Of a stretch of 64,000 nucleotides of DNA, positions 465 through 50,760 are shown piece by piece. The stretch comes from a virus. Lineage: Duplodnaviria; Caudoviricetes. The position numbers and the translations under genes were made by a program. How positions within the stretch are numbered: position 1 is the stretch's first letter; every line of letters begins with the position of its first letter. The stretch covers positions 1-64,000 of the IMG/VR virus record IMGVR_UViG_2775507096_000001. One strand, given 5' to 3'. A model generated the notes under the pieces. That model ran no database searches. It was not told the origin of the DNA and worked only from the letters and a program-made list of their open reading frames with translations.

Positions 465-537
465 TCCTCCGTAGCTCAATTGGCAGAGCAGCCGGCTGTT
501 AACCGGCAGGTTACTGGTTCGAGTCCAGTCGGGGGAG
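465..537 (+). tRNA. tRNA-Asn(GTT)
   Basis: Cloverleaf TCCTCCG/CGGGGGA, anticodon loop CTGTTAA, T-loop TTCGAGT; CCA not encoded. Confidence 0.97.
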
Positions 538-543
538 CTTCGG

Positions 544-616
544 TCCTCCGTAGCTCAATTGGCAGAGCAGCCGGCTGTTAACCGGCAGGTTACTGGTTCG
601 AGTCCAGTCGGGGGAG
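544..616 (+). tRNA. tRNA-Asn(GTT), identical tandem copy
   Basis: Identical to 465-537. Confidence 0.97.
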
Positions 617-625
617 CGCTGAACG

Positions 626-648
626 AGGACCCCTCCGGGGTCCTTTTT
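626..648 (+). terminator. Intrinsic terminator after tRNA-Asn pair
   Basis: AGGACCCC-tcc-GGGGTCCT followed by T run. Confidence 0.8.
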
Positions 649-792
649 CATGTCCCCCGGGAACCGCCGCGGCCTGCGGCGCTGTCCTCAAGGTCATGAG
701 CAGCGCGGAAGCCGACCATCCGAGGCAGGAGATCGTATGAGCGGCTATGCTGCGGCAGACGGCGCGCACACTTGTACGCGACACGCCGCTAT

Positions 793-866
793 GGGGCGGT
801 AGCTCAGCCGGTTAGAGCAGCGGACTCATAATCCGTCGGCCGTGGGTTCGAGTCCCACCCGCCCCA
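793..866 (+). tRNA. tRNA with CAT anticodon (probably tRNA-Ile2, else Met); likely prophage attachment site
   Basis: GGGGCGG/CCGCCCC acceptor stem, loop CTCATAA, T-loop TTCGAGT; phage-like genes begin right after it. Confidence 0.92.
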
Positions 867-871
867 CCCCT

Positions 872-3405: not shown

Positions 3406-3681
3406 ATGTCCACTACCCGCATGCGACGCCGAAATGGCGCGCCCTTCCAGCACTCCCCGGAGGCGGTGAGGAGCGCCCGCGAGAACGCGGCGCTCAGTCA
3501 AAAGGCCTTGGCGGAGAAGTGCGGGATCAGCGCGCAGCTCCTCTGTGACATCGAGGCCGGCCGCAGGAACGCGACGCCGAACCGGCTGCGCGCGATGGCC
3601 CGCGTACTGGGCTGCGAGGTCGCAGACCTGCAACCGCGCAAGGACGAACCGCCTGCGGTCATCGAGAGGCAGGCGTCGTGA
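3406..3681 (+). CDS. Cro-like XRE HTH regulator
   Basis: LSQKALAEKCGISAQLLCDIEAGRR. Confidence 0.85.
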   Translation: MSTTRMRRRNGAPFQHSPEAVRSARENAALSQKALAEKCGISAQLLCDIEAGRRNATPNRLRAMARVLGCEVADLQPRKDEPPAVIERQAS

Positions 3682-3767
3682 ACACGCCCGCATGTGAAGA
3701 GGCCGCCGAGCCGTGCCGGGCTCAGCGGCCTCCATCCCCCGAACGAACCCATGTAGGAGAAGGAACG

Positions 3768-4868
3768 TTGTCTCAACAGGCTACCCACCCGTGGACCCCA
3801 CCAGAGTCCACACCGGATGACCTCGCGTACGGGGCGCCGACCGCACGGCTCATCCTCCCTGCCGGCGACCTGGCCGACCCCGAGTACAAGGCTCGGTGGG
3901 ACAAGGTCCGCCGGACCGGCATCGGCGGGTCCGAGGTCGCGAAGATCCTCGGCCTCAACAAGTACGCGGGCCCCCGCCACGTGTACGAGGAGAAGCACGG
4001 CCGGCCCGTCCCGATGGACGCCCAGCTCAGCGAGTACGCCGAGGTGGGCCAGGAAATCGAGGACTTCATCGCGTACATGTTCACGAGGCGGACCGGCATC
4101 GGTGCAATGCCGACGCCGGGGACGCTCGCGAACGTCGACCGGCCATGGATGCGCTCCAACGTCGACAGGTACGCCCTCGACCCACAGACCAACGAGGTCG
4201 TCGCCCCGATCGAGCTGAAGAACCGCAGCGCCTACCAGCTCGACGACTGGGAGGACGGTGTCCCGGACGGGCCCGCGCTCCAGGTCCACTGGAACCTCGC
4301 GGTCGGCGGCTGGGAGTACGGCTGGGCCGTCGCCCTCGTCGGCGGCAACACCCTCAGGTACCACCGCATCGAGCGGGATGAGGAACTGATCGGGCTCCTC
4401 ATCGACACGTGCGGGCGCTGGTTCCAGCGGCACGTCATCGAGGGCTACCCGCCGCCCGCCGACGGCCTGGACGCGACGAAGGACCTCCTCGGCCGCCTCT
4501 GGCACGTCAAGCCGAAGGACGTCATCGAGGTGCCCCGCGCGAAGGCGGAGAAGCTCCGCAAGCGGCGCGCGGCGCTGCTCGCCCAGATCGAGGAGCTGGA
4601 CGAGCAGAAGACCCAGATCGAGAACGAGATGCGTCTGATCTGCGGCGACAAGGCCAGCATCGCGGAGGTCGAGGGCAAGAAGGCCTGGTCGTACGTCCAG
4701 AACGGCACGTTCGCGCCGAAGCGGTTCGCGGAGAAGTACCCGGAGATCGCCGCCGAGTGCCGGAAGACGGTCGAGGTCCTGGACCCGGACCAGATCAAGG
4801 AGAAGTACCCCGTCGAGTACGAGGCGTGCTGCGCCCGGGTGCTGCGCGTGCCCAAGAAGGAGCTGTGA
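3768..4868 (+). CDS. YqaJ-family viral recombinase exonuclease
   Basis: RRTGIGGSEVAKILG, SNVDR, IELKN, QVHW motifs; TTG start after AGGAGAAGGA. Confidence 0.9.
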   Translation: MSQQATHPWTPPESTPDDLAYGAPTARLILPAGDLADPEYKARWDKVRRTGIGGSEVAKILGLNKYAGPRHVYEEKHGRPVPMDAQLSEYAEVGQEIEDFIAYMFTRRTGIGAMPTPGTLANVDRPWMRSNVDRYALDPQTNEVVAPIELKNRSAYQLDDWEDGVPDGPALQVHWNLAVGGWEYGWAVALVGGNTLRYHRIERDEELIGLLIDTCGRWFQRHVIEGYPPPADGLDATKDLLGRLWHVKPKDVIEVPRAKAEKLRKRRAALLAQIEELDEQKTQIENEMRLICGDKASIAEVEGKKAWSYVQNGTFAPKRFAEKYPEIAAECRKTVEVLDPDQIKEKYPVEYEACCARVLRVPKKEL

Positions 4869-33438: not shown

Positions 33439-34641
33439 ATGACCACCGCCACCACCCCCAAGGCACCCGCCAAGAAGGCCCCGGCCGCGAAGAAGCCCGC
33501 CAGAAAGGCCCCCACGACCAAGGCGACGCCCGCGAAGAAGACCGTCCCCGCCCCGGCCGGCGACGAGAAGCGGACCCAGTTCCGCACCATCCCCATCGGC
33601 AAGATCGACCGCGACCCGGGCCAGCCCCGCGAGCACTTCGACGAGGCTGCGCTTCAGGAACTGGCCGCCTCCATGAAGAAGCTGGGCCAGCTCCAGCCGA
33701 TCAACGTCCGCTACAACGAGGACACCAAGCGGTACACGATCATCATGGGCGAGCGCCGCTGGCGGGCCGCCCAGATGGCCGGCCTCACCCAGATGAAGGC
33801 CGTCGTCATGCACGGTGTCGGCGACGGCCGCGAGACCTTCGCCATGGCCGTCGCCGAGAACGTCGGCCGCGCGGACATGACCCCCGTTGAGGAGGCGAAG
33901 GCCTTCCACAAGCTGGCCGAGGCCGGGTACACCGTCGACGAGATCGCCGAGCTGGTCGGCAAGTCCGCCGCGTACGTCCAGTGGCGGATCGACCTGCTGA
34001 ACCTGTGCCCCGAGGCGCGCGAAGCCCTGGTGAAGGGGCAGCTCCCGGTCGGCCTGGCCTGGTACGTCGGGAAGCTCGCCAACGCCAACCAGGTCCGGTT
34101 CCTGTCGAAGTGGGTCCGAGGTGACTTCAAGTCGGCCCGGGACGCCGAGAGCTTCGCGCAGGCCCTGCACACCGAGGAGAAGCGGCAGCAGGAACAGGGC
34201 AGCTTCTTCGTCCTGTCCGACGAGGCCGCCGCCTCCCGCAAGGACAAGGGGCAGGACTCGCTGCCCGGTTCCCTCGACCTGCCCGACGAGGAGCGCGACC
34301 GCATCCTGGCCGACCGCTCGAAGCTGGTCGGGAAGATCGAGAAGCTCGGCCAGGTCGGCGAGATCCTCTCGCTGCTCGCCGCATCGGACCCGGAGGAACT
34401 CGCCCTGCTGCTCGCCGGCACGCCCGGTGGCATCGGCGGCCACCGCCTGCGGATCAAGCACCTCCAGGACATCGCGACCAAGGCCATGGCCAACCTGCGG
34501 AAGGCCGAGATGGTGGCCGAGGTCCGCGCGAGCGGCCTGACCGTCAACCCCGACGCCGAGGCCGCCGCCACGGCCGCCGAGGACGACGACGCCGAGGCTG
34601 CCACCCCGGCCGCCGCCGGCGACGCCGAAGCCGCCGCCTGA
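33439..34641 (+). CDS. ParB/RepB/Spo0J family protein with histone-H1-like N-tail
   Basis: QPREHFDEAALQELAASMKKLGQLQPI, GERRWRA, ENVGRADM, HTH; KAPAKKAPAAKK tail. Confidence 0.92.
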   Translation: MTTATTPKAPAKKAPAAKKPARKAPTTKATPAKKTVPAPAGDEKRTQFRTIPIGKIDRDPGQPREHFDEAALQELAASMKKLGQLQPINVRYNEDTKRYTIIMGERRWRAAQMAGLTQMKAVVMHGVGDGRETFAMAVAENVGRADMTPVEEAKAFHKLAEAGYTVDEIAELVGKSAAYVQWRIDLLNLCPEAREALVKGQLPVGLAWYVGKLANANQVRFLSKWVRGDFKSARDAESFAQALHTEEKRQQEQGSFFVLSDEAAASRKDKGQDSLPGSLDLPDEERDRILADRSKLVGKIEKLGQVGEILSLLAASDPEELALLLAGTPGGIGGHRLRIKHLQDIATKAMANLRKAEMVAEVRASGLTVNPDAEAAATAAEDDDAEAATPAAAGDAEAAA

Positions 34642-35447: not shown

Positions 35448-36275
35448 ATGGAGATCCCAAGCGGCGTCTACGACGTCCTCACCGACGAGCGCACGGTCAT
35501 CGCCGGCGACCGCGTGCAGATCCCGTTCGAGCTGGACAGCGCCGTCTACAAGCAGGTGAACAAGATGCTGAAGGAGATCGGCGGCCGGTGGGACGGCCGA
35601 ACTGCGGTCCGCGCTCACGTCTTCCCGTTCGAGGTGGAGGCGTTCATGCGGGCCTGCCTCGCCACCCGCGAGTTCCCCACCCGGTACGAGCAGGGCTGGT
35701 ACCCGACCCCGCCGCGGGTGGTGGACGAGATGCTGGCCCACGCGGGCATCAGCGAGGGCATGAGCGTCCTGGAGCCCTCGGCGGGCACCGGCTCCATCGT
35801 GGGCCCGGCCGCCGAGTGCGGCGCGGTCGTCGACTGCGTCGAGATCGACGAGCGGCGCGTCGCAGTCCTCCGCGAGCAGGACGCCGCCCGCCGTATCGTG
35901 CACGCTGACTTCCTCGACCTGGACCCGCTCGACTGCCCCCACGGCTACAGCAGAGTGCTGATGAACCCGCCGTTCGCGGCGGCCGTGCAGCACGTGAAGC
36001 ACGCGCTGGGCTTCCTCGACGACGACGGCACGCTCGTCGCGGTCATGCCCGAGTCGGTGATGTGGCACAGCGACCGGGCCACCGTCGAGTTCCGTGAGCT
36101 GATCGCCCTCGCCGAGGGCACCTTCGCCCCGCTGCCCGACGACTCGTTCGCGCCGTCCGGGGCGAACGTGCGCACCGTCCTCCTGGTGGTCGACGCCGAG
36201 GCCGGCGGACCGCTGCCCACTCACGGCTGGCACCACAGCCAGCCCCGCCAGCTCGACCTGTTCATCACCCCCTGA
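35448..36275 (+). CDS. Amino (probably N6-adenine) DNA methyltransferase
   Basis: YPTP, VLEPSAGTG, EID, DF, NPPF; C-terminal QLDLF. Confidence 0.85.
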   Translation: MEIPSGVYDVLTDERTVIAGDRVQIPFELDSAVYKQVNKMLKEIGGRWDGRTAVRAHVFPFEVEAFMRACLATREFPTRYEQGWYPTPPRVVDEMLAHAGISEGMSVLEPSAGTGSIVGPAAECGAVVDCVEIDERRVAVLREQDAARRIVHADFLDLDPLDCPHGYSRVLMNPPFAAAVQHVKHALGFLDDDGTLVAVMPESVMWHSDRATVEFRELIALAEGTFAPLPDDSFAPSGANVRTVLLVVDAEAGGPLPTHGWHHSQPRQLDLFITP

Positions 36276-39446: not shown

Positions 39447-41195
39447 GTGCCCTACATAGACGCCACCACGCGCGCCATGGCGGCGGCGTCCACCGCCACC
39501 ACCCCCAGCCCCGCCCGCGCGTACAAGCACGACGGCAGCGTGCTGACCGCCATGAGCTGGTTCTGCGGGGCCGGCGGCGATACACAGGGCGCCGACGCGG
39601 TCCCCGGCGTCCAGGTCACCAGAGGCGCGAACCACTGGGACGTCGCGCTCGCCACCCACGCCTGGAACAACCCGCACTGCGACCTGTGGAAGGGCGACAT
39701 CCGCCGGGCCCCGGTCGAGAAGTGGCCGGTCTGCCAGCTGTTCTGGGCGTCGCCCGAGTGCCCGAAGTGGTCGGCGGCCCGAGGTGTGAAGGTCGACTTC
39801 GACCGCACGCTGCAAGGCGACTTCGACTTCGACGAGCCCGAGTTCAAGAGCGAGAAGGAGCGCCGGGCCGCCGAGGAGCGCAGCCGCGCCCTCATGGAAG
39901 AAGTCCCGATGTACCTGCGGGGCGTCATCAACCGCGGCGGCCTGGTCCTCGGCGGAGTCGTCGAGAACGTCATTGACTGCCGGGGCTGGGACCAGTGGGA
40001 CCGCTGGGTCGGCGAGTTCCACAAGCTCGGGTACCGGACCAAGCTCCTGGCGATCAACTCGATGCACGTCGCCCCCCGCACTCTCGACCGCGTCCCACAG
40101 TCCCGCGACAGGCTGTACTTCGTCTACTGGCACGAGAGCCTGGGCCGAGACCCCGACTTCGACAAGTGGGTGCTGCGGCCGGACGCCTGGTGCTACGACT
40201 GCGAAGAGCAGGTCCGCTCAGTCCAGGTCTTCCGCAAGCCCGGCAAGGACATGGGCCGCTACCGGCAGAGCTACGACTACCGCTGCCCCCGCTCGGACTG
40301 CCGGGCGGTTGTTGAGCCGTACGTCCTCCCCGCGGCGGCTGCCATCGACTTCACGATCCCGGGAACGCCGATCGGCGACCGCGAGAAGACCGACGACTGC
40401 CCCGAGGGCCTGGCCCCGGCCACGATCGCCCGCATCCGGGCCGGCGGCTCCAAGTACTGGGGCTGGGGCGCGGACTTCCACCAGCTGGACGGGCAGGACT
40501 CGCTGTTCGGCGACGTCGACGAAGAACAACTGCCTGAGGCCCCTGGCAGCCCGCTCCTCGTCCCAGCCGGCGGGACCTGGCGGGACAAAGCCATCCACCT
40601 TGGCCAGCCCATGCCGACCAGGACGACGGTCGAGACCGACGGCATCGCCTTCCCGCCCCTGCTGATCCCCTGCGAGGGCCGCACCGGAAAGAAGGCCATG
40701 CGGCTGGAAGACCCGCTGCGCACCCAGACGGCCCGAGCCGAGACCGCCCTCGCCTACCTCCCGTTCGTGGTCCCCATGCGGGGCGGCGGCGACAAGGAGA
40801 AGGCCCGTCACATCGGCCACCCACTCCACACCGTCTCGGCCGGCGGCAACCACCACGGCCTGGTGACCGCCCCGGATCACCTCCTCGTCCCGTACTACGG
40901 CAACGGGCAGGCCCGCCCGGTCACCGACCCGATCGGAGCGCTGCCCACCCGGGACCGCTACGCGCTGGTCAGCCGGGACTTCCGGATCGACGACGTCCTG
41001 TTCCGGATGCTCCAGCCCGAGGAGATCAAGAAGGCGATGGCGTTCAGGGGGAAGTACAAGATCCTGGGCTCCAAGCGGCACCAGGTGCGTCAGCTCGGCA
41101 ACGCGGTCACCCCGGCGGTCGCGGAAGTCCTGTACTGCGCGCTGGTCGAGTGCATCACCGGCGAGGAGATCGACCGGTACGCGATGGTCGCCTGA
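39447..41195 (+). CDS. DNA (cytosine-5) methyltransferase
   Basis: FCGAGG, SPEC (catalytic Cys), ENV, QSRDR, GNAV; internal QDSLF. Confidence 0.9.
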   Translation: MPYIDATTRAMAAASTATTPSPARAYKHDGSVLTAMSWFCGAGGDTQGADAVPGVQVTRGANHWDVALATHAWNNPHCDLWKGDIRRAPVEKWPVCQLFWASPECPKWSAARGVKVDFDRTLQGDFDFDEPEFKSEKERRAAEERSRALMEEVPMYLRGVINRGGLVLGGVVENVIDCRGWDQWDRWVGEFHKLGYRTKLLAINSMHVAPRTLDRVPQSRDRLYFVYWHESLGRDPDFDKWVLRPDAWCYDCEEQVRSVQVFRKPGKDMGRYRQSYDYRCPRSDCRAVVEPYVLPAAAAIDFTIPGTPIGDREKTDDCPEGLAPATIARIRAGGSKYWGWGADFHQLDGQDSLFGDVDEEQLPEAPGSPLLVPAGGTWRDKAIHLGQPMPTRTTVETDGIAFPPLLIPCEGRTGKKAMRLEDPLRTQTARAETALAYLPFVVPMRGGGDKEKARHIGHPLHTVSAGGNHHGLVTAPDHLLVPYYGNGQARPVTDPIGALPTRDRYALVSRDFRIDDVLFRMLQPEEIKKAMAFRGKYKILGSKRHQVRQLGNAVTPAVAEVLYCALVECITGEEIDRYAMVA

Positions 41196-45900: not shown

Positions 45901-45974
45901 GCGCTGGTGCGTGTAAGCAACACGGCCCGACTTCCAGTCGGGCGTTCCAGGTGCAAGCCCTGGCCGGCGCTCCA
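45901..45974 (+). tRNA. Atypical tRNA-Gly(TCC) with encoded CCA
   Basis: GCGCTGG/CCGGCGC, U73, CCA; D-stem CGTG/CACG; CCCGA-CTTCCAG-TCGGG; CCAGG-TGCAAGC-CCTGG; no D-loop GG, T-loop TGC. Confidence 0.8.
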
Positions 45975-45975
45975 C

Positions 45976-46010
45976 GAAGGCCCCACCCAAGCCCCCGGGT
46001 GGGGCCCTTC
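45976..46010 (+). terminator. Hairpin after tRNA-Gly
   Basis: GGCCCCACCC...GGGTGGGGCC. Confidence 0.55.
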
Positions 46011-46089
46011 GCATTCCGTCCCACCGCTGACAATGGGCCACCGAACCCGCAGGTGTGCGCACTGCGCAGACGGACTTCAGGAGCGGCCC

Positions 46090-47433
46090 ATGTTCCACGG
46101 CTCGATACCCGCGCCCCTCCGCTCGATCATCTACGAGCACGCCGGGACCTGGCCCGGCGAGGACATCTACGTCGGCTGCTCGGGGAATTTCACGATCGAG
46201 CGGGTGCTGCACGCCCGGTTCGGCGACTCCCGCCGCGTCCACGGCAACGACATCCAGGCGTACAGCTGCGCCCTCGGCTGGTACCTCGCCGGCGACCCGC
46301 TCAACTACACACTGCGCGCGGAGTACGAGGAGTCCCTGGGCTGGCTCAAGCCCTACCTGGAGGACCGCACAGACCTCCTCGCCACCCTGATGCTCGGCAC
46401 CCGGTTCCTCCAGTACGTCGGCAAGGACGGCGCCTACTACCGGCGGATGATGGACGCCACCCGCGACCAGTGGGAGCGGATGCACGACAAGACCGCCACC
46501 AAGCTGCGCGGCCTCCAGACCCGCCTGGGCTCGTTCTTCGCCGGCGACGTCCGCGACTACCTCGACTCCGAGGTGCCCCCGGACGCCCCCGTGGTGATGT
46601 TCCCCCCGTTCTACGCGAAGGACTACCAGGCGCAGTTCGCGAGCATCGACGCCGCGTTCGAGTGGCCCGAGCCGTCGTTCGACGAGCTGACCGAGGACGG
46701 CAAGGAACGCATCATCGAGCAGGTCCAGGACCGGCCGAACTGGGTGCTCGGCCTGCACATCGAGCGCCCCGAGCTGCGGGACAAGCTGGCCGGCGTCGTA
46801 CAGACCGCGAACCGCGGCCTGCCGATCTACGTGTACGCCGCCGCCGGCCCCCGCCGTATCGTCCGGCCCCGGCAGCCCGTCGAGCCGATCCCCATGCCGA
46901 AGATCGGGCAGGACGAGGAACTCGGCGACCGCATGACGCTCCACGTCCTCACCGGCGGCCAGTTCGCGGCGATCCGCTCCCAGTTCATGTCGAAGACCAT
47001 CAAGCCCGGCAGCCCGCTCATCGCGTGCGGTGTCGCGGTCGACGGCAAGCTCATCGGCGCGTTCGCCTACCTGCCGCCCAAGTTCGACCCGAACACCGCC
47101 TACCTCATGTCGGACTTCCCCGTCTCCTGGACCCGGTACCGGCGCCTGTCGAAGCTCATCGTGATGGCCGCCTCCACGAAGGAAGCGCAGCTCCTCGTCC
47201 AGCGCAGCCTGTCCAAGCGGATCGACGGCTGGGCCACGACCGCGTTCACGGACCGGCCGAACAGCGCGAAATACGGCAGGGGCATCCCCGGCGTGAAGCT
47301 CCAGAAGCGCACCGAGCCCGGCGCCGACGGCATCCACCGCTACCAGCTCCAGTACGGCGGCCCCCTCGGCCAGTACGACCTGAACGAAGCCCTCACCCTC
47401 TGGAAGACCAAACACGGCAAGGACATGCGATGA
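46090..47433 (+). CDS. Putative DNA-modification enzyme: adenine-MTase-like N-half plus possible GNAT/Mom-like C-half
   Basis: YVGCSGNF (motif I-like), GNDI, FAGDV, FPPFY (motif IV-like); C-half GVAVDGKLIGAFAY, YLMSDF, RLSKLIV, TTAFTD. Confidence 0.6.
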   Translation: MFHGSIPAPLRSIIYEHAGTWPGEDIYVGCSGNFTIERVLHARFGDSRRVHGNDIQAYSCALGWYLAGDPLNYTLRAEYEESLGWLKPYLEDRTDLLATLMLGTRFLQYVGKDGAYYRRMMDATRDQWERMHDKTATKLRGLQTRLGSFFAGDVRDYLDSEVPPDAPVVMFPPFYAKDYQAQFASIDAAFEWPEPSFDELTEDGKERIIEQVQDRPNWVLGLHIERPELRDKLAGVVQTANRGLPIYVYAAAGPRRIVRPRQPVEPIPMPKIGQDEELGDRMTLHVLTGGQFAAIRSQFMSKTIKPGSPLIACGVAVDGKLIGAFAYLPPKFDPNTAYLMSDFPVSWTRYRRLSKLIVMAASTKEAQLLVQRSLSKRIDGWATTAFTDRPNSAKYGRGIPGVKLQKRTEPGADGIHRYQLQYGGPLGQYDLNEALTLWKTKHGKDMR

Positions 47434-48359
47434 CCACCAGCAGCCAGATCAGGCCCCGCCTCGTCCAGCGCGACCCGCGCCGCCTCACCCGCCTCGCCGT
47501 GAACGCGCACTACCAGACCAAGGAGGAGTACGACCGGCTCGTCGCGAACATCCGCGAGGACGGCTGCCTCACCTCCATCCCGCTGATCTACGGCGCCGGC
47601 GAGTACCCGGAGGGCGAGGAGCTGATCGTCTCCGGTAACCACCGCTGCGACGCCTCGGTAGAAGCCGGCCTGGACGAGATCACCTGCCTGCTCATCGACG
47701 ACCCGCAGAGCCGCGACCAGCTCATCGCCCGCCAGCTGTCCCACAACGCCATCACCGGCAAGGACGACCCGGCCACCCTCCAGCAGCTGTACGACCAGAT
47801 CGAAGACGTGGACTGGCGGGCCTACTCCGGCCTGGACGACGCCCAGCTCCAGCTCCTCGCCGAGGTCAGCCCCGAAGGGCTCTCCGAAGCGAATCTGGAC
47901 TTCGCCACCGTGAGCCTGATCTTCCTGCCGATGGAGCTGGAAGCCGCCCGGGAAGCCTTCGAGCAGGCCCGCCTCGGCCAGAACGAGAGCTGGCTCGCCG
48001 CACGCGCCGACTACCAGCAGACCCTGGACACGCTCGCCTCCACGCACGCCGCGCACAAGGTCGGCAACGTCGCCACAGCCCTCCACGCCATCCTCGCGAT
48101 CGTCGAACGCCACCTGGACGAGCTTCAGGAGGGCTACACCGCCCCCGACGGCACCCACCTCCACACCGGGCACGTCGGCCTGGAGACCGTCCTCGGCGCC
48201 CGCACCCTGCCCGCACCCGCCGCCGTCACCATCAACAAGGCCATCGCAGCCGCAGAAGGACGCGGCGAGATCGAGCAGGGGCAGGGCTGGCGCCTCCTCG
48301 AACGCCTCGCCGGCGAGTACCTGTCCGGCCCGAACCACACCCCCAGCGACCCGGCATGA
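47430..48359 (+). CDS. ParB/Srx N-terminal domain protein
   Basis: NAH...YDRLVANIREDG, IVSGNHR, QLSHNAI. Confidence 0.8.
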   Translation: MTTSSQIRPRLVQRDPRRLTRLAVNAHYQTKEEYDRLVANIREDGCLTSIPLIYGAGEYPEGEELIVSGNHRCDASVEAGLDEITCLLIDDPQSRDQLIARQLSHNAITGKDDPATLQQLYDQIEDVDWRAYSGLDDAQLQLLAEVSPEGLSEANLDFATVSLIFLPMELEAAREAFEQARLGQNESWLAARADYQQTLDTLASTHAAHKVGNVATALHAILAIVERHLDELQEGYTAPDGTHLHTGHVGLETVLGARTLPAPAAVTINKAIAAAEGRGEIEQGQGWRLLERLAGEYLSGPNHTPSDPA

Positions 48360-49167: not shown

Positions 49168-50760
49168 GTGACGACGGCCGTGGACGAGCTGGAGCACCTG
49201 GACGACGCGGAGGTCTACCGGCAGTTGGAGGCCGCGCGCCGCGCGATGAGCGCCGACCTGCTACGGGACCCGGTGACGCTCGCCCGCGGCCTCGACCGCA
49301 CGTTCCGGATGCGCCCGCACCTGAAGCTCATCGGTGAAGCCCTGGCCGAGGTAGGGCACGGCGGCCCGGACCGGCTGCTGATCCTGACCCCGCCCCAGGT
49401 GGGGAAGAGCACGACGGTCGCGGAGTGGTTCCCGTTCTGGTGGCTGTGCACGTACCCGGGCGACAAGGTCGCGGTCACCTCGTACGGCGACGACCTGGCG
49501 CTGCGACGCGGTAAGCGGATCCGCTCGTACGTCGAGGAGTACGGCGAGGAGTGGGAGCTGCGCCTGAAGGGCGGCTCCGGGGCGATGCAGGACTGGGAGG
49601 TCACCAAGGGCGGCGGTGTCCGCTCGGTGTCCGTCGGCAAGGGCCTGACCGGCTTCGACGTGAACCTGCTGATCATCGACGACCCGCACAAGGACCGCGC
49701 GGACGCCGAATCCGAGGCCGCCCGGCGGGCGCTGCACGACTGGTACAGCTCGGCGGCCCTGACCCGTCTCCAGCCCGACCGCAGCGCGGTGGTGGCGATC
49801 CAGACCCGGTGGCACCCCGACGATTTCGCCGGCCGCCGTATCGAGGAAGAGGGCCGGGTCGAGGACGGCGGCCGGTGGAAGGTGATCCACCTGCCCGCGG
49901 TCGCCGACCCCAAGTTCGGCCCGGACCCGCTCGGCCGGGAGGCGGGGGAGCCGCTGCCGCACCCGAAGATCCCCACCCGGGACGTGGCCCGGCTGCGCGG
50001 CTGGTGGGCGCAGAAGAAGGCAACGTCGATCGTCCGGGACTGGCACGCCCTCTATCAGGGCGACCCGCAGCCCGGTGAAGGAGCACTCGTGTCCGAGGAA
50101 CTGCTGCGCCTGCTCCGCGACACCACCACACCGGTGGAGCCGCAGAAGATCGCCGTGTCCATCGACCCGTCCGGCGGCGGCCGGGACACCGCGGGCGTCA
50201 TCGGTGGCTTCCTCGGCGACGACGGCCGCGTCTGGATCACCGACGACGTCTCGGCGCCGATGTCGTCGGCGGAGTGGTCCATGGCCGCGTGCCGGCTGGC
50301 GTACCGCACGAACGCGTCGATCATCTACGTGGAGTGGAACTTCGGCCGCGACATGTGCGTGCTGGCGGTCCAGACGTCGTGGGAGAAGCTCCAGCGGGAA
50401 GGGGAGATCCCGAACCACGTCCTGATGCCGGCGGTCCTCCCGGTGCGCGCGAAGCAGGGGAAGCTGCTGAGGGCGGAGCCGATCGCGCAGCAGATGGTGC
50501 AGGACAAGGTCCGGCTGCGCGGGGTGTTCACCGACCTGGAACGGGAGTGGGCGACCTGGCAGCCGACCGACCCCGACAGCCCCGGCCGGATCGACGCCTC
50601 CTGTGTCCTGGTGTACGGCCTGATCCCCGAGGCCAACGCGGGCGCGATCGTCCACGCTCCGCTCCCACAGGCCCCCCAGCCCAGCGGCGCGCGCACCGGC
50701 ATACCGAGCAGCGTGCAACCGAACCGGCCGGCATCCCCGTACGGGCGTCGTATCGGCTGA
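49168..50760 (+). CDS. Terminase large subunit
   Basis: PPQVGKST Walker A, LLIIDDPHKD Walker B, QTRWHPDD, YQGDP, SIDPS. Confidence 0.93.
   Translation: MTTAVDELEHLDDAEVYRQLEAARRAMSADLLRDPVTLARGLDRTFRMRPHLKLIGEALAEVGHGGPDRLLILTPPQVGKSTTVAEWFPFWWLCTYPGDKVAVTSYGDDLALRRGKRIRSYVEEYGEEWELRLKGGSGAMQDWEVTKGGGVRSVSVGKGLTGFDVNLLIIDDPHKDRADAESEAARRALHDWYSSAALTRLQPDRSAVVAIQTRWHPDDFAGRRIEEEGRVEDGGRWKVIHLPAVADPKFGPDPLGREAGEPLPHPKIPTRDVARLRGWWAQKKATSIVRDWHALYQGDPQPGEGALVSEELLRLLRDTTTPVEPQKIAVSIDPSGGGRDTAGVIGGFLGDDGRVWITDDVSAPMSSAEWSMAACRLAYRTNASIIYVEWNFGRDMCVLAVQTSWEKLQREGEIPNHVLMPAVLPVRAKQGKLLRAEPIAQQMVQDKVRLRGVFTDLEREWATWQPTDPDSPGRIDASCVLVYGLIPEANAGAIVHAPLPQAPQPSGARTGIPSSVQPNRPASPYGRRIG

Follow-up and report, generated by a model that had tools for sequence, protein, structure and literature searches.

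A phage module joining an atypical tRNA-Gly to a Dam-like/GNAT enzyme and a ParB-like protein as a candidate system for tRNA-dependent DNA hypermodification

tRNA-dependent modification of DNA has so far been shown for one family, Mom, which works with a host tRNA. In the Mom reaction, glycine passes from Gly-tRNAGly to the N6 position of adenines in double-stranded DNA (Silva et al. 2026, PMC13219725; bioRxiv 2023, Nat Commun 2026). The catalytic residues of Mom are R111, S124, D149 and R151, and an insertion resembling a helix-turn-helix (HTH) in the Mu enzyme (residues ~175-209) is essential for activity (PMC13219725). The same paper mentions no phage-encoded tRNAs, methyltransferase fusions or ParB partners. 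The locus described here lies in a 64,000-nt stretch of viral DNA, positions 1 to 64,000 of IMG/VR record IMGVR_UViG_2775507096_000001, which is called the window throughout. Its source record is a 98.8-kb provirus whose nearest relatives are Streptomyces prophages. An atypical tRNA-Gly(UCC) at 45901-45974 is followed on the same (+) strand by the gene for a 447-residue enzyme (46090-47433), in which a Dam-like domain is fused to a GNAT-fold domain, and by a ParB/Srx-like gene (47430-48359). Judged from comparisons of sequence and predicted structure, this module is fairly likely to carry out a Mom-like, Gly-tRNA-dependent adenine modification of phage DNA, with the tRNA serving as a private glycyl carrier unfit for decoding. 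This is also the interpretation put forward in a first-pass annotation of the window, whose statement that Mom uses Gly-tRNA is borne out by PMC13219725, and it is supported by the comparisons below. No paper describing the combination of tRNA-Gly, Dam-like/GNAT enzyme and ParB-like protein was found in the full-text literature.

The module resembles Mom in its GNAT fold, in being phage-encoded, in a late or prepackaging position, and in an anti-restriction context. Both are linked to tRNA-Gly, although for Mom the tRNA is a proven cosubstrate and for the module the link is a genomic one. Mu uses a host tRNA-Gly, whereas the module has a private, noncanonical tRNA in about 80% of loci. The module also has a ParB-like partner that tblastn did not find in the Mom loci sampled. 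The Mom-family (PF25680) sample scanned for tRNAs comprised 80 wider loci, with 43 close-Mu loci left out of that scan, and an adjacent tRNA-Gly(UCC) was present in 3 of the 80. These three (L240:2749-2822, L243:2755-2828 and L282:2733-2806, where L numbers stand for individual loci) are fairly canonical tRNA-Gly(UCC) genes on the same strand, 180-270 nt upstream of mom.

A second parallel is found in Staphylococcus aureus, where nonproteogenic tRNAGly species supply a transferase of the GNAT fold outside translation and have weak affinity for EF-Tu (PMC7826273), as the first-pass annotation had stated. Like the tRNA of the module, the tRNAs that serve FemXAB/FmhB come from extra UCC-type genes that keep glycine identity and deviate in the D-loop, T-loop and T-stem. 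The staphylococcal genes are cellular and dedicated to peptidoglycan, whereas here a phage-borne tRNA is tied to a fusion resembling a DNA enzyme. The tRNAs of the module also deviate further, with A34, loss of U33, G:C pairs at 32-38 and anticodon loops of 6 or 8 nt, and the enzyme has no Fem similarity.

The module was followed through 163 loci, 159 of them gathered from species-representative genomes and IMG/VR and added to the loci of cultured phages. Homologues of the enzyme are found in the cultured Gordonia phages Jollymon, Soos, Sting and Clawz (48-55% identity) and in the cultured Mycobacterium phages Jeon, Taptic, D12, PR and others (43% identity). Jeon has an annotated tRNA-Gly(tcc) immediately upstream of the enzyme. 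The Gordonia phages have an unannotated tRNA-Gly (GCGCGAC...GUCGCGC U CCA), which ARAGORN misses and which is detected by R1, a covariance model made for this work and trained on 69 ARAGORN-found tRNAs of the family. ARAGORN finds a same-strand tRNA-Gly in 115 of the 163 loci, its 3' end 18-361 nt ahead of the enzyme start codon. R1 scores host tRNA-Gly like family members (53-73 bits) and was therefore applied only beside the enzyme gene, where it contributes 18 further loci. Most of these tRNAs are immediately upstream, and a few are 0.6-2.3 kb away, downstream or on the opposite strand. Overall, a tRNA-Gly lies within 3 kb in 133 of the 163 loci, nearly always on the same strand and directly upstream, and other tRNAs are almost absent from the 7-kb loci.

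The linkage of tRNA and enzyme is found in 15 of the 24 enzyme clusters formed at 60% identity and reaches members at 35% identity in Clostridia, Oscillospiraceae and other contigs. The pattern repeats in more distant representatives (L179, L181 and L182), and a search for nonglycine tRNAs beside distant homologues saw Gly-type tRNAs or none. The ParB-like gene lies directly downstream of the enzyme in 160 of the 163 loci, and the order of enzyme, ParB-like gene, small open reading frame (ORF), terminase and portal is the same in homologous loci. The unit is a tRNA-Gly, a Dam-like/GNAT enzyme and a ParB-like protein, usually just before the terminase genes. The first-pass annotation had made its reading depend on the presence of tRNA-Gly near homologues, and such tRNAs are found across phyla. 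Because the three-part unit recurs in most related phages, it suggests that the tRNA gives glycine to phage DNA and not to ribosomes. A more conventional explanation is that the enzyme is an ordinary anti-restriction N6-adenine methyltransferase, with a GNAT half that uses acetyl-CoA for an unrelated task and a tRNA-Gly that supplements the decoding of rare GGA/GGG codons. Phages often carry tRNAs, but a tRNA kept for decoding would be unlikely to stay as the sole tRNA beside one enzyme across phyla. The tRNA was also considered as an attP site or integration remnant. This was rejected: it lies midgenome, between early and packaging genes, and is also present in lytic or virion-derived phage genomes.

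Several loci show variant arrangements. Tandem private tRNAs precede the enzyme at L143:1478-1626 (CCC + CCC) and L083:2772-2923 (CCC + ACC). The Dam-like and GNAT parts are split genes at L309:2621-4103 and L311:2738-4169, the second with a tRNA-like element directly upstream. At L310:3501-4910, RecT and ParB_N flank a standalone 167-residue GNAT-phage-like gene; the Dam-like domain is absent, and the flanks contain no tRNA. DUF488 genes are found upstream of two distant members (L180:495-821 and L183:81-509), with no tRNA in the available flanks. A contig of Streptomyces prunicolor (L171:1501-1571) has a tRNA-Gly(UCC) of the phage-family type, with a UGCGA T-loop and no GG; there is no Dam-like/GNAT gene within 1.5 kb of it, and the neighboring ORFs have no Pfam match except for a saccharopine dehydrogenase-like gene. 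The main exception to the linkage with a tRNA-Gly is a 13-member Streptomyces clade (within L112-L127; enzyme at 43% identity), which comes from ~20-kb IMG/VR proviruses with no tRNA-Gly in the records. These records open with tRNA-Asn, tRNA-Asn and tRNA-Met (469-873 in G001), at offsets as in the window (465-869), which suggests that another element, smaller in size, occupies this chromosomal site.

The tRNA-Gly of the window has a length of 74 nt (GCGCUGG UG CGUG UAAGCAA CACG G CCCGA CUUCCAG UCGGG CGUU CCAGG UGCAAGC CCUGG CCGGCGC U CCA). It is called by ARAGORN as tRNA-Gly(tcc) at 45901-45974 on the + strand and scores 73.1 bits with R1. All of the features listed for it in the first-pass annotation are found by direct reading. 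It has G1-C72, C2-G71, G3-C70, U73, a UCC anticodon and a genome-encoded CCA, and its four stems are fully paired (7/4/5/5). The D-loop, UAAGCAA, has no G18G19, and U stands in place of A at position 14; the T-loop, UGCAAGC, has G at position 55; the T-stem has A51-U63; and the anticodon loop, CUUCCAG, has U33 and A37. Set against a canonical elongator tRNA-Gly, the cloverleaf and the identity set for glycyl-tRNA synthetase (GlyRS) are present, whereas A14, G18G19 and U55 are missing, as is the open 7-nt anticodon loop with a non-Watson-Crick 32-38. In the minimum free energy structure from ViennaRNA (-38.8 kcal/mol, z = -2.95 versus shuffles), C32-G38 and U33-A37 pair and the loop shrinks to a UCC triloop. 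Rfam RF00005 misses this tRNA-Gly both in a search of 2 kb with E<=1 and across the full provirus record, and for that reason the tRNA is classed as atypical; the same model gives the three host-type tRNAs of the record 68-76 bits.

The family was analyzed as 109 distinct tRNA sequences, with anticodon-arm positions taken from 98 cleanly parsed copies; because the sequences are related, the counts do not represent independent events, and the shuffle test used below takes no account of phylogeny. RNAalifold recovers the cloverleaf with compensatory changes in 18 of 22 pairs, and pairs 1-3 of the acceptor stem are without variation. Selection acts on the tRNA as a cloverleaf, in line with the earlier argument for selection over decay. 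G1-C72, C2-G71 and U73 are found in 109/109 copies, G3-C70 in 107/109, and C35 and C36 in 98/98; these are the positions that we take to be the glycine identity elements of GlyRS. The wobble position is U in 60, C in 23, A in 14 and G in 1, and A34 is, to our knowledge, not in use among bacterial tRNA-Gly. U33 gives way to another base in 22/98, U8 is lost in 30/109, and position 37 is a pyrimidine in 19/98. The D-loop GG is missing in 60/109. The T-loop begins UGC instead of UUC in 20/109, and 19 of these 20 are also without the GG, suggesting a joint loss of elbow contacts. CCA is encoded in only 60/109, some copies have 6-nt or 8-nt anticodon loops, and in 10 of 20 other loci the copies score below the RF00005 gathering threshold.

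In the anticodon arm, a G:C Watson-Crick pair joins positions 32 and 38 in 87/98 copies, with swaps between C-G (79) and G-C (8). They are pairable in 95/98 compared with 74.9 +/- 2.0 in column shuffles, and 33-37 is pairable in 78. The pair at 51-63 is A-U in 60/109; this pair is known to influence how tightly EF-Tu binds (Sanderson & Uhlenbeck 2007, as cited in PMC7826273). The host tRNA-Gly genes used for comparison, taken from two related Streptomyces genomes, are canonical, with C32 or U32 facing A38, the GG and TTCGA, and their tRNA-Gly(UCC) has G51-C63.

Because the identity elements are invariant and the decoding and elbow elements are free or lost, the tRNA appears to be a glycyl carrier suited to charging and unsuited to decoding, and the conservation pattern fits what is expected of an RNA selected for glycylation and not for decoding. 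The strictness of U73 is also consistent with PMC6097841, in which the discriminator base is reported to govern the action of DTD on Gly-tRNA; this would be relevant for a Gly-tRNA without EF-Tu shielding. In the window itself, the UCC anticodon with U33 and A37 would suit a tRNA that supplements the decoding of rare glycine codons. Across the family, however, a decoding tRNA would not be expected to tolerate A34, the loss of U33, G:C at 32-38 and loops of 6 or 8 nt together with an invariant GlyRS set.

The same data bear on the idea that the tRNA-like element is never aminoacylated and is only a cis-acting RNA signal for expression of the enzyme, as an RNase P/Z site or transcript end. In many loci the element is 18-40 nt before the start codon, and the partial encoding of CCA would fit such a role. 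In the window, a G+C-rich hairpin, a perfect inverted repeat without a U-tract that surfaced as a chance mir-1803 match, follows right after the CCA (45977-46008, + strand) and is possibly a terminator or processing stem; the + strand had no consensus terminator or promoter call. Processing, however, would need just the shape of the acceptor and T arms, yet C35, C36, U73 and acceptor pairs 1-3 are invariant and the rest covaries. The tRNAs that are 0.6-2.3 kb off, downstream or on the opposite strand also count against a cis-acting signal, and this explanation is very improbable.

Among host-side genes, a tRNA-Gly(UCC) on the chromosome of Streptomyces kronopolitis (L178:1355-1427) has no D-loop GG and a T-loop of the UGCAA type, the same T-loop deviation as in the phage tRNA. 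It adjoins a canonical tRNA-Gly(GCC) and may be a cell-wall (Fem-type) tRNA-Gly of Streptomyces.

The enzyme gene has the 447-codon extent, the distance of 115 nt from the tRNA and the YVGCSGNF and FPPFY motifs that the first-pass annotation reported. Its ATG is preceded at 7 nt by AGGAG, the ribosome-binding site. The protein (phrog_7858) matches PF22555 DAM-like-phage1 with 356.3 bits and then PF22559 GNAT-phage-like with 196.1 bits, against cutoffs of 27. No other Pfam family is matched, including Dam, N6-methyltransferase, PF25680 and Fem families, and no NCBIfam model is matched. Sequence searches of the PDB with the protein or a 46-sequence profile were set aside, as they gave only spurious CaMKII matches at the FPPF...DWP stretch. 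The AlphaFold2 model of the whole enzyme is confident, with a predicted local distance difference test (pLDDT) score of 92.2.

The Dam-like domain (residues 2-272; 46093-46905; PF22555 at 1.3e-106) is predicted to have the class I methyltransferase fold; after beta2 it carries a helical insert, the element with which Dam enzymes bind DNA. Structural alignment by VIA-align gives its longest alignments with DpnM (2dpm, Z 12.3 over 196 residues), T4 Dam (1q0s, Z 11.8 over 182) and EcoDam (2ore, Z 11.7 over 190), although the Z scores are tied with those of many other methyltransferases. The loop of motif I, G29-C-S-G-N33 directly after beta1 (46174-46188), as well as D54 after beta2 and D153 after beta3, are invariant or nearly so in 46 sequences and occupy the expected positions in the model. 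Features in common with the alpha-group Dam family are the fold and helical insert, the loop of motif I, the acidic residues that follow beta2 and beta3, and, in motif IV, the conserved PP core. The differences are the fused GNAT domain, the absence of a Pfam Dam or N6-methyltransferase match, and motif IV itself, which is [F/Y/H]PP[F/T] instead of (D/N/S)PP(Y/F/W).

Motif IV (F171-P-P-F174, after beta4; 46600-46611) counts against the conventional explanation. Homologues with 94% identity carry the public name 'putative antirestriction adenine methyltransferase', and the Dam-like fold and conserved pocket motifs for S-adenosylmethionine (SAM) agree with that name. The D, N or S of motif IV, however, is what activates N6 for methyl transfer, and among the homologues listed, each of the 132 distinct sequences begins the motif with F, Y or H and never with D, N or S. 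For this reason the N-terminal half is probably not a working N6-methyltransferase. The first-pass annotation had seen an amino-methyltransferase-like half here: the Dam-like fold and motifs hold up, and an active N6-methyltransferase probably does not. The PP core of the motif is invariant, and the domain can be read as one that would flip and hold adenine and no longer methylate N6 in the ordinary way.

Inteins of the Hint/LAGLIDADG type are present right after motif IV (FPPFY|C…HN|SGDY…) in P0012, P0026, P0137 and about a dozen other homologues of ~700 residues, from Streptomyces, Planomonospora and metagenomic sources. Inteins usually target functionally critical sites. Because they are inserted immediately after FPPFY, motif IV appears to still matter.

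The GNAT-fold domain spans residues 280-443 (46927-47418; PF22559 at 4.7e-58), and its 172-residue model has a pLDDT of 92.6. Foldseek finds GNAT matches for it, and VIA-align gives GNAT neighbors with a top Z of 12.2; Mom (8bv8_B) ranks fifth, with Z 11.2 and a root-mean-square deviation of 3.4 Å over 142 residues. Mom is not among the Foldseek matches listed for this half and appears only on realignment with VIA-align. The first-pass annotation rested its case on a GNAT-like C-terminal half and pointed to Mom, GNAT and Fem proteins for comparison. The GNAT fold is confirmed by the family match, the confident model and the structural neighbors, whereas no sequence relation to Mom or Fem is found. 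Invariant in this half are Y338, D342, E365, TTAF (383-386) and S392, K394, Y395, R397 and G398 (S-x-K-Y-x-R-G), among which D342, E365, K394, Y395 and R397 are candidate catalytic residues. The beta4-alpha3 loop reads VSWTRYRRLSKL and has no R/Q-x-x-G-x-G/A motif, the loop with which GNATs bind the pyrophosphate of CoA. From general knowledge of GNATs, the missing motif makes an acyl-CoA donor less likely. The missing CoA loop also counts against the acetyl-CoA part of the conventional explanation, and a methyltransferase with an unrelated GNAT half and a decoding tRNA is on the whole quite unlikely.

A different relation between the enzyme and the tRNA is suggested by GNAT toxins such as TacT, AtaT and ItaT, which share the GNAT fold and specificity for charged tRNA, with TacT acting on Gly-tRNAGly (PMC13219725). 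The tRNA of the module could then be a target or regulator: the GNAT domain would acetylate Gly-tRNA, the Dam-like domain would methylate the tRNA, or the tRNA would be a decoy against a host defense directed at tRNA. The top neighbors of the N-terminal domain do include the tRNA/rRNA methyltransferases Trm14, TrmN and Erm (Z 12.3-12.5). The longest alignments of that domain, with the helical insert included, are nevertheless with DNA adenine methylases, and no conserved adenine stands out in the tRNA beyond the universal A58 and A76. The toxins use acetyl-CoA to block the amino group on the tRNA and come as toxin-antitoxin pairs, whereas the module lacks the CoA loop and an antitoxin and has a packaging context. 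A toxin would hardly be kept as a constant part of a late operon with no antitoxin, and both the obligatory ParB-like protein and the location before terminase are signs of a role on DNA. A tRNA-directed role is accordingly rated as rather improbable.

Another alternative keeps Gly-tRNA as the donor and changes the acceptor, which would be a small molecule, a precursor of the cell wall, or a protein, for instance one of the virion or the ParB-like partner. Gly-tRNA is used in the peptidoglycan chemistry of Streptomyces, and the L310 lineage has the GNAT and ParB genes without the Dam-like domain. The known GNATs that depend on aminoacyl-tRNA (Fem, MprF and L/F-transferase) also mostly aminoacylate peptides, lipids and proteins (PMC13219725). 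Against this, the Dam-like domain is fused or adjacent in nearly all members, split forms included, the adenine-binding PP core of motif IV is invariant, and there is no Fem-family similarity. An acceptor other than DNA adenine is therefore considered unlikely.

The ParB-like protein (309 residues; 47430-48359, + strand) is the third part of the module. Its ORF overlaps the enzyme stop codon (ATGA) and is translationally coupled, in agreement with the earlier description of a coupled ParB/Srx gene just before terminase. The protein matches phrog_7405 at 7.8e-61 and, with values between 7e-9 and 1e-8, ParB-like PHROGs. It does not match Pfam ParB_N at E<=0.01, although homologues have weak or full PF02195 matches. 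SGNHR and several other positions are invariant in this gene, and its identity covaries with that of the enzyme. Loading or spreading on DNA, or handling of the CCA end of the tRNA, can be suggested as roles for it, both as speculation. In four loci (L101, L072, L129 and L046), tblastn alignments of the ParB-like gene pass an in-frame stop near the C-terminal end, most likely by extension beyond the true gene end and not through recoding.

The gene anatomy, the folds (as predictions), the three-part linkage and the conservation of the tRNA are directly established, and the steps of the mechanism are inferred from them. In the proposed mechanism, the host GlyRS would charge the phage tRNA-Gly, which keeps only what GlyRS needs: G1-C72, C2-G71, G3-C70, U73, C35 and C36. 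With its changes in the anticodon loop, elbow and T-stem, the tRNA would be poorly used by EF-Tu and the ribosome and would act as a dedicated glycyl carrier. The Dam-like domain would bind DNA, flip out the adenine to be modified and accommodate it in a pocket made by the aromatic [F/Y/H]PP[F], without ordinary methyl transfer. The GNAT domain would then move the glycyl group from the 3' end of the tRNA to N6, like Mu Mom, and the product may rearrange to N6-carbamoylmethyl-adenine. The cotranslated ParB-like protein may help position the enzyme on DNA shortly before packaging, and the modified phage DNA would resist host restriction. A fuller version of this proposal is about evenly balanced between holding and failing: the methyltransferase fold would have become a DNA-reading, adenine-flipping arm, the tRNA a pure cofactor with an NCC triloop, and the ParB-like protein a loader, with a glycine-derived and possibly methylated adenine in many actinobacterial and Firmicutes phages. 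We know of no report of such an adenine hypermodification in these phages.

A number of observations weigh against Gly-tRNA-dependent modification of DNA by this module. The C-terminal half is structurally no closer to Mom than to ordinary acetyl-CoA GNATs, given tied VIA-align Z scores. There is no sequence similarity between the GNAT half and Mom (hhalign probability of 0.7%; no PF25680 match), whereas Mu Mom, as a control, matches PF25680 at 2.4e-75. The HTH-like insertion of Mom is not present in the GNAT model, where a 15-residue loop joins beta5 and beta6; a whole fused Dam-like domain is what the module has instead. The SAM-pocket residues GCSGN, D54 and D153 are kept, and the Dam-like domain may still bind SAM and methylate something. 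The UCC and CCC anticodons would also serve rare GGA/GGG codons in a high-GC host. R1 cannot tell host tRNA-Gly from the family, which means that R1-only calls rest on position. The flanks of 30 of the 163 loci, including the 13-member Streptomyces clade, have no tRNA, and the private tRNA is therefore dispensable. Finally, one lineage (L310) has the GNAT and ParB pair and lacks the Dam-like domain.

The module is a putative variant of tRNA-dependent DNA hypermodification, strongly supported by comparative genomics. If the proposal is correct, this chemistry would be widespread: the family has 1536 representative clusters at 50% identity, from prophages of Streptomyces and Micromonospora to Mycobacterium and Gordonia phages and gut Clostridia. 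It would have originated independently of Mom, from another scaffold in which a GNAT is joined to a Dam-like reader, and phages would encode their own nontranslational aminoacyl carrier. Hundreds of 'adenine methyltransferases' would need to be reannotated, along with tRNA genes now overlooked by standard tools or taken for aids to codon usage. Restriction-resistant DNA would be predicted, which is relevant to actinobacterial phage engineering. As a compact three-gene system found in cultivable SEA-PHAGES phages such as Jeon, Clawz and Jollymon, the module should be practical for studying how tRNAs are partitioned from EF-Tu and how methyltransferase active sites are repurposed.

The surroundings of the module in the window are those of a prophage. 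ARAGORN finds four tRNAs in the window, three of them canonical and host-type (Asn, Asn and Met, at 465-869) and the fourth the tRNA-Gly(tcc). Two small ORFs separate the ParB-like gene from the large terminase gene (49168-50760, + strand; PF03237 Terminase_6N at 2.7e-8), with which the packaging and structural genes begin. The prophage also has other DNA-modification functions: a canonical ParB with ParB_N and HTH_ParB domains (33439-34641), a weak candidate for an RrnaAD-like methyltransferase (35448-36275), a C5-cytosine DNA methylase (39447-41195) and a YqaJ-like exonuclease (3678-4868).

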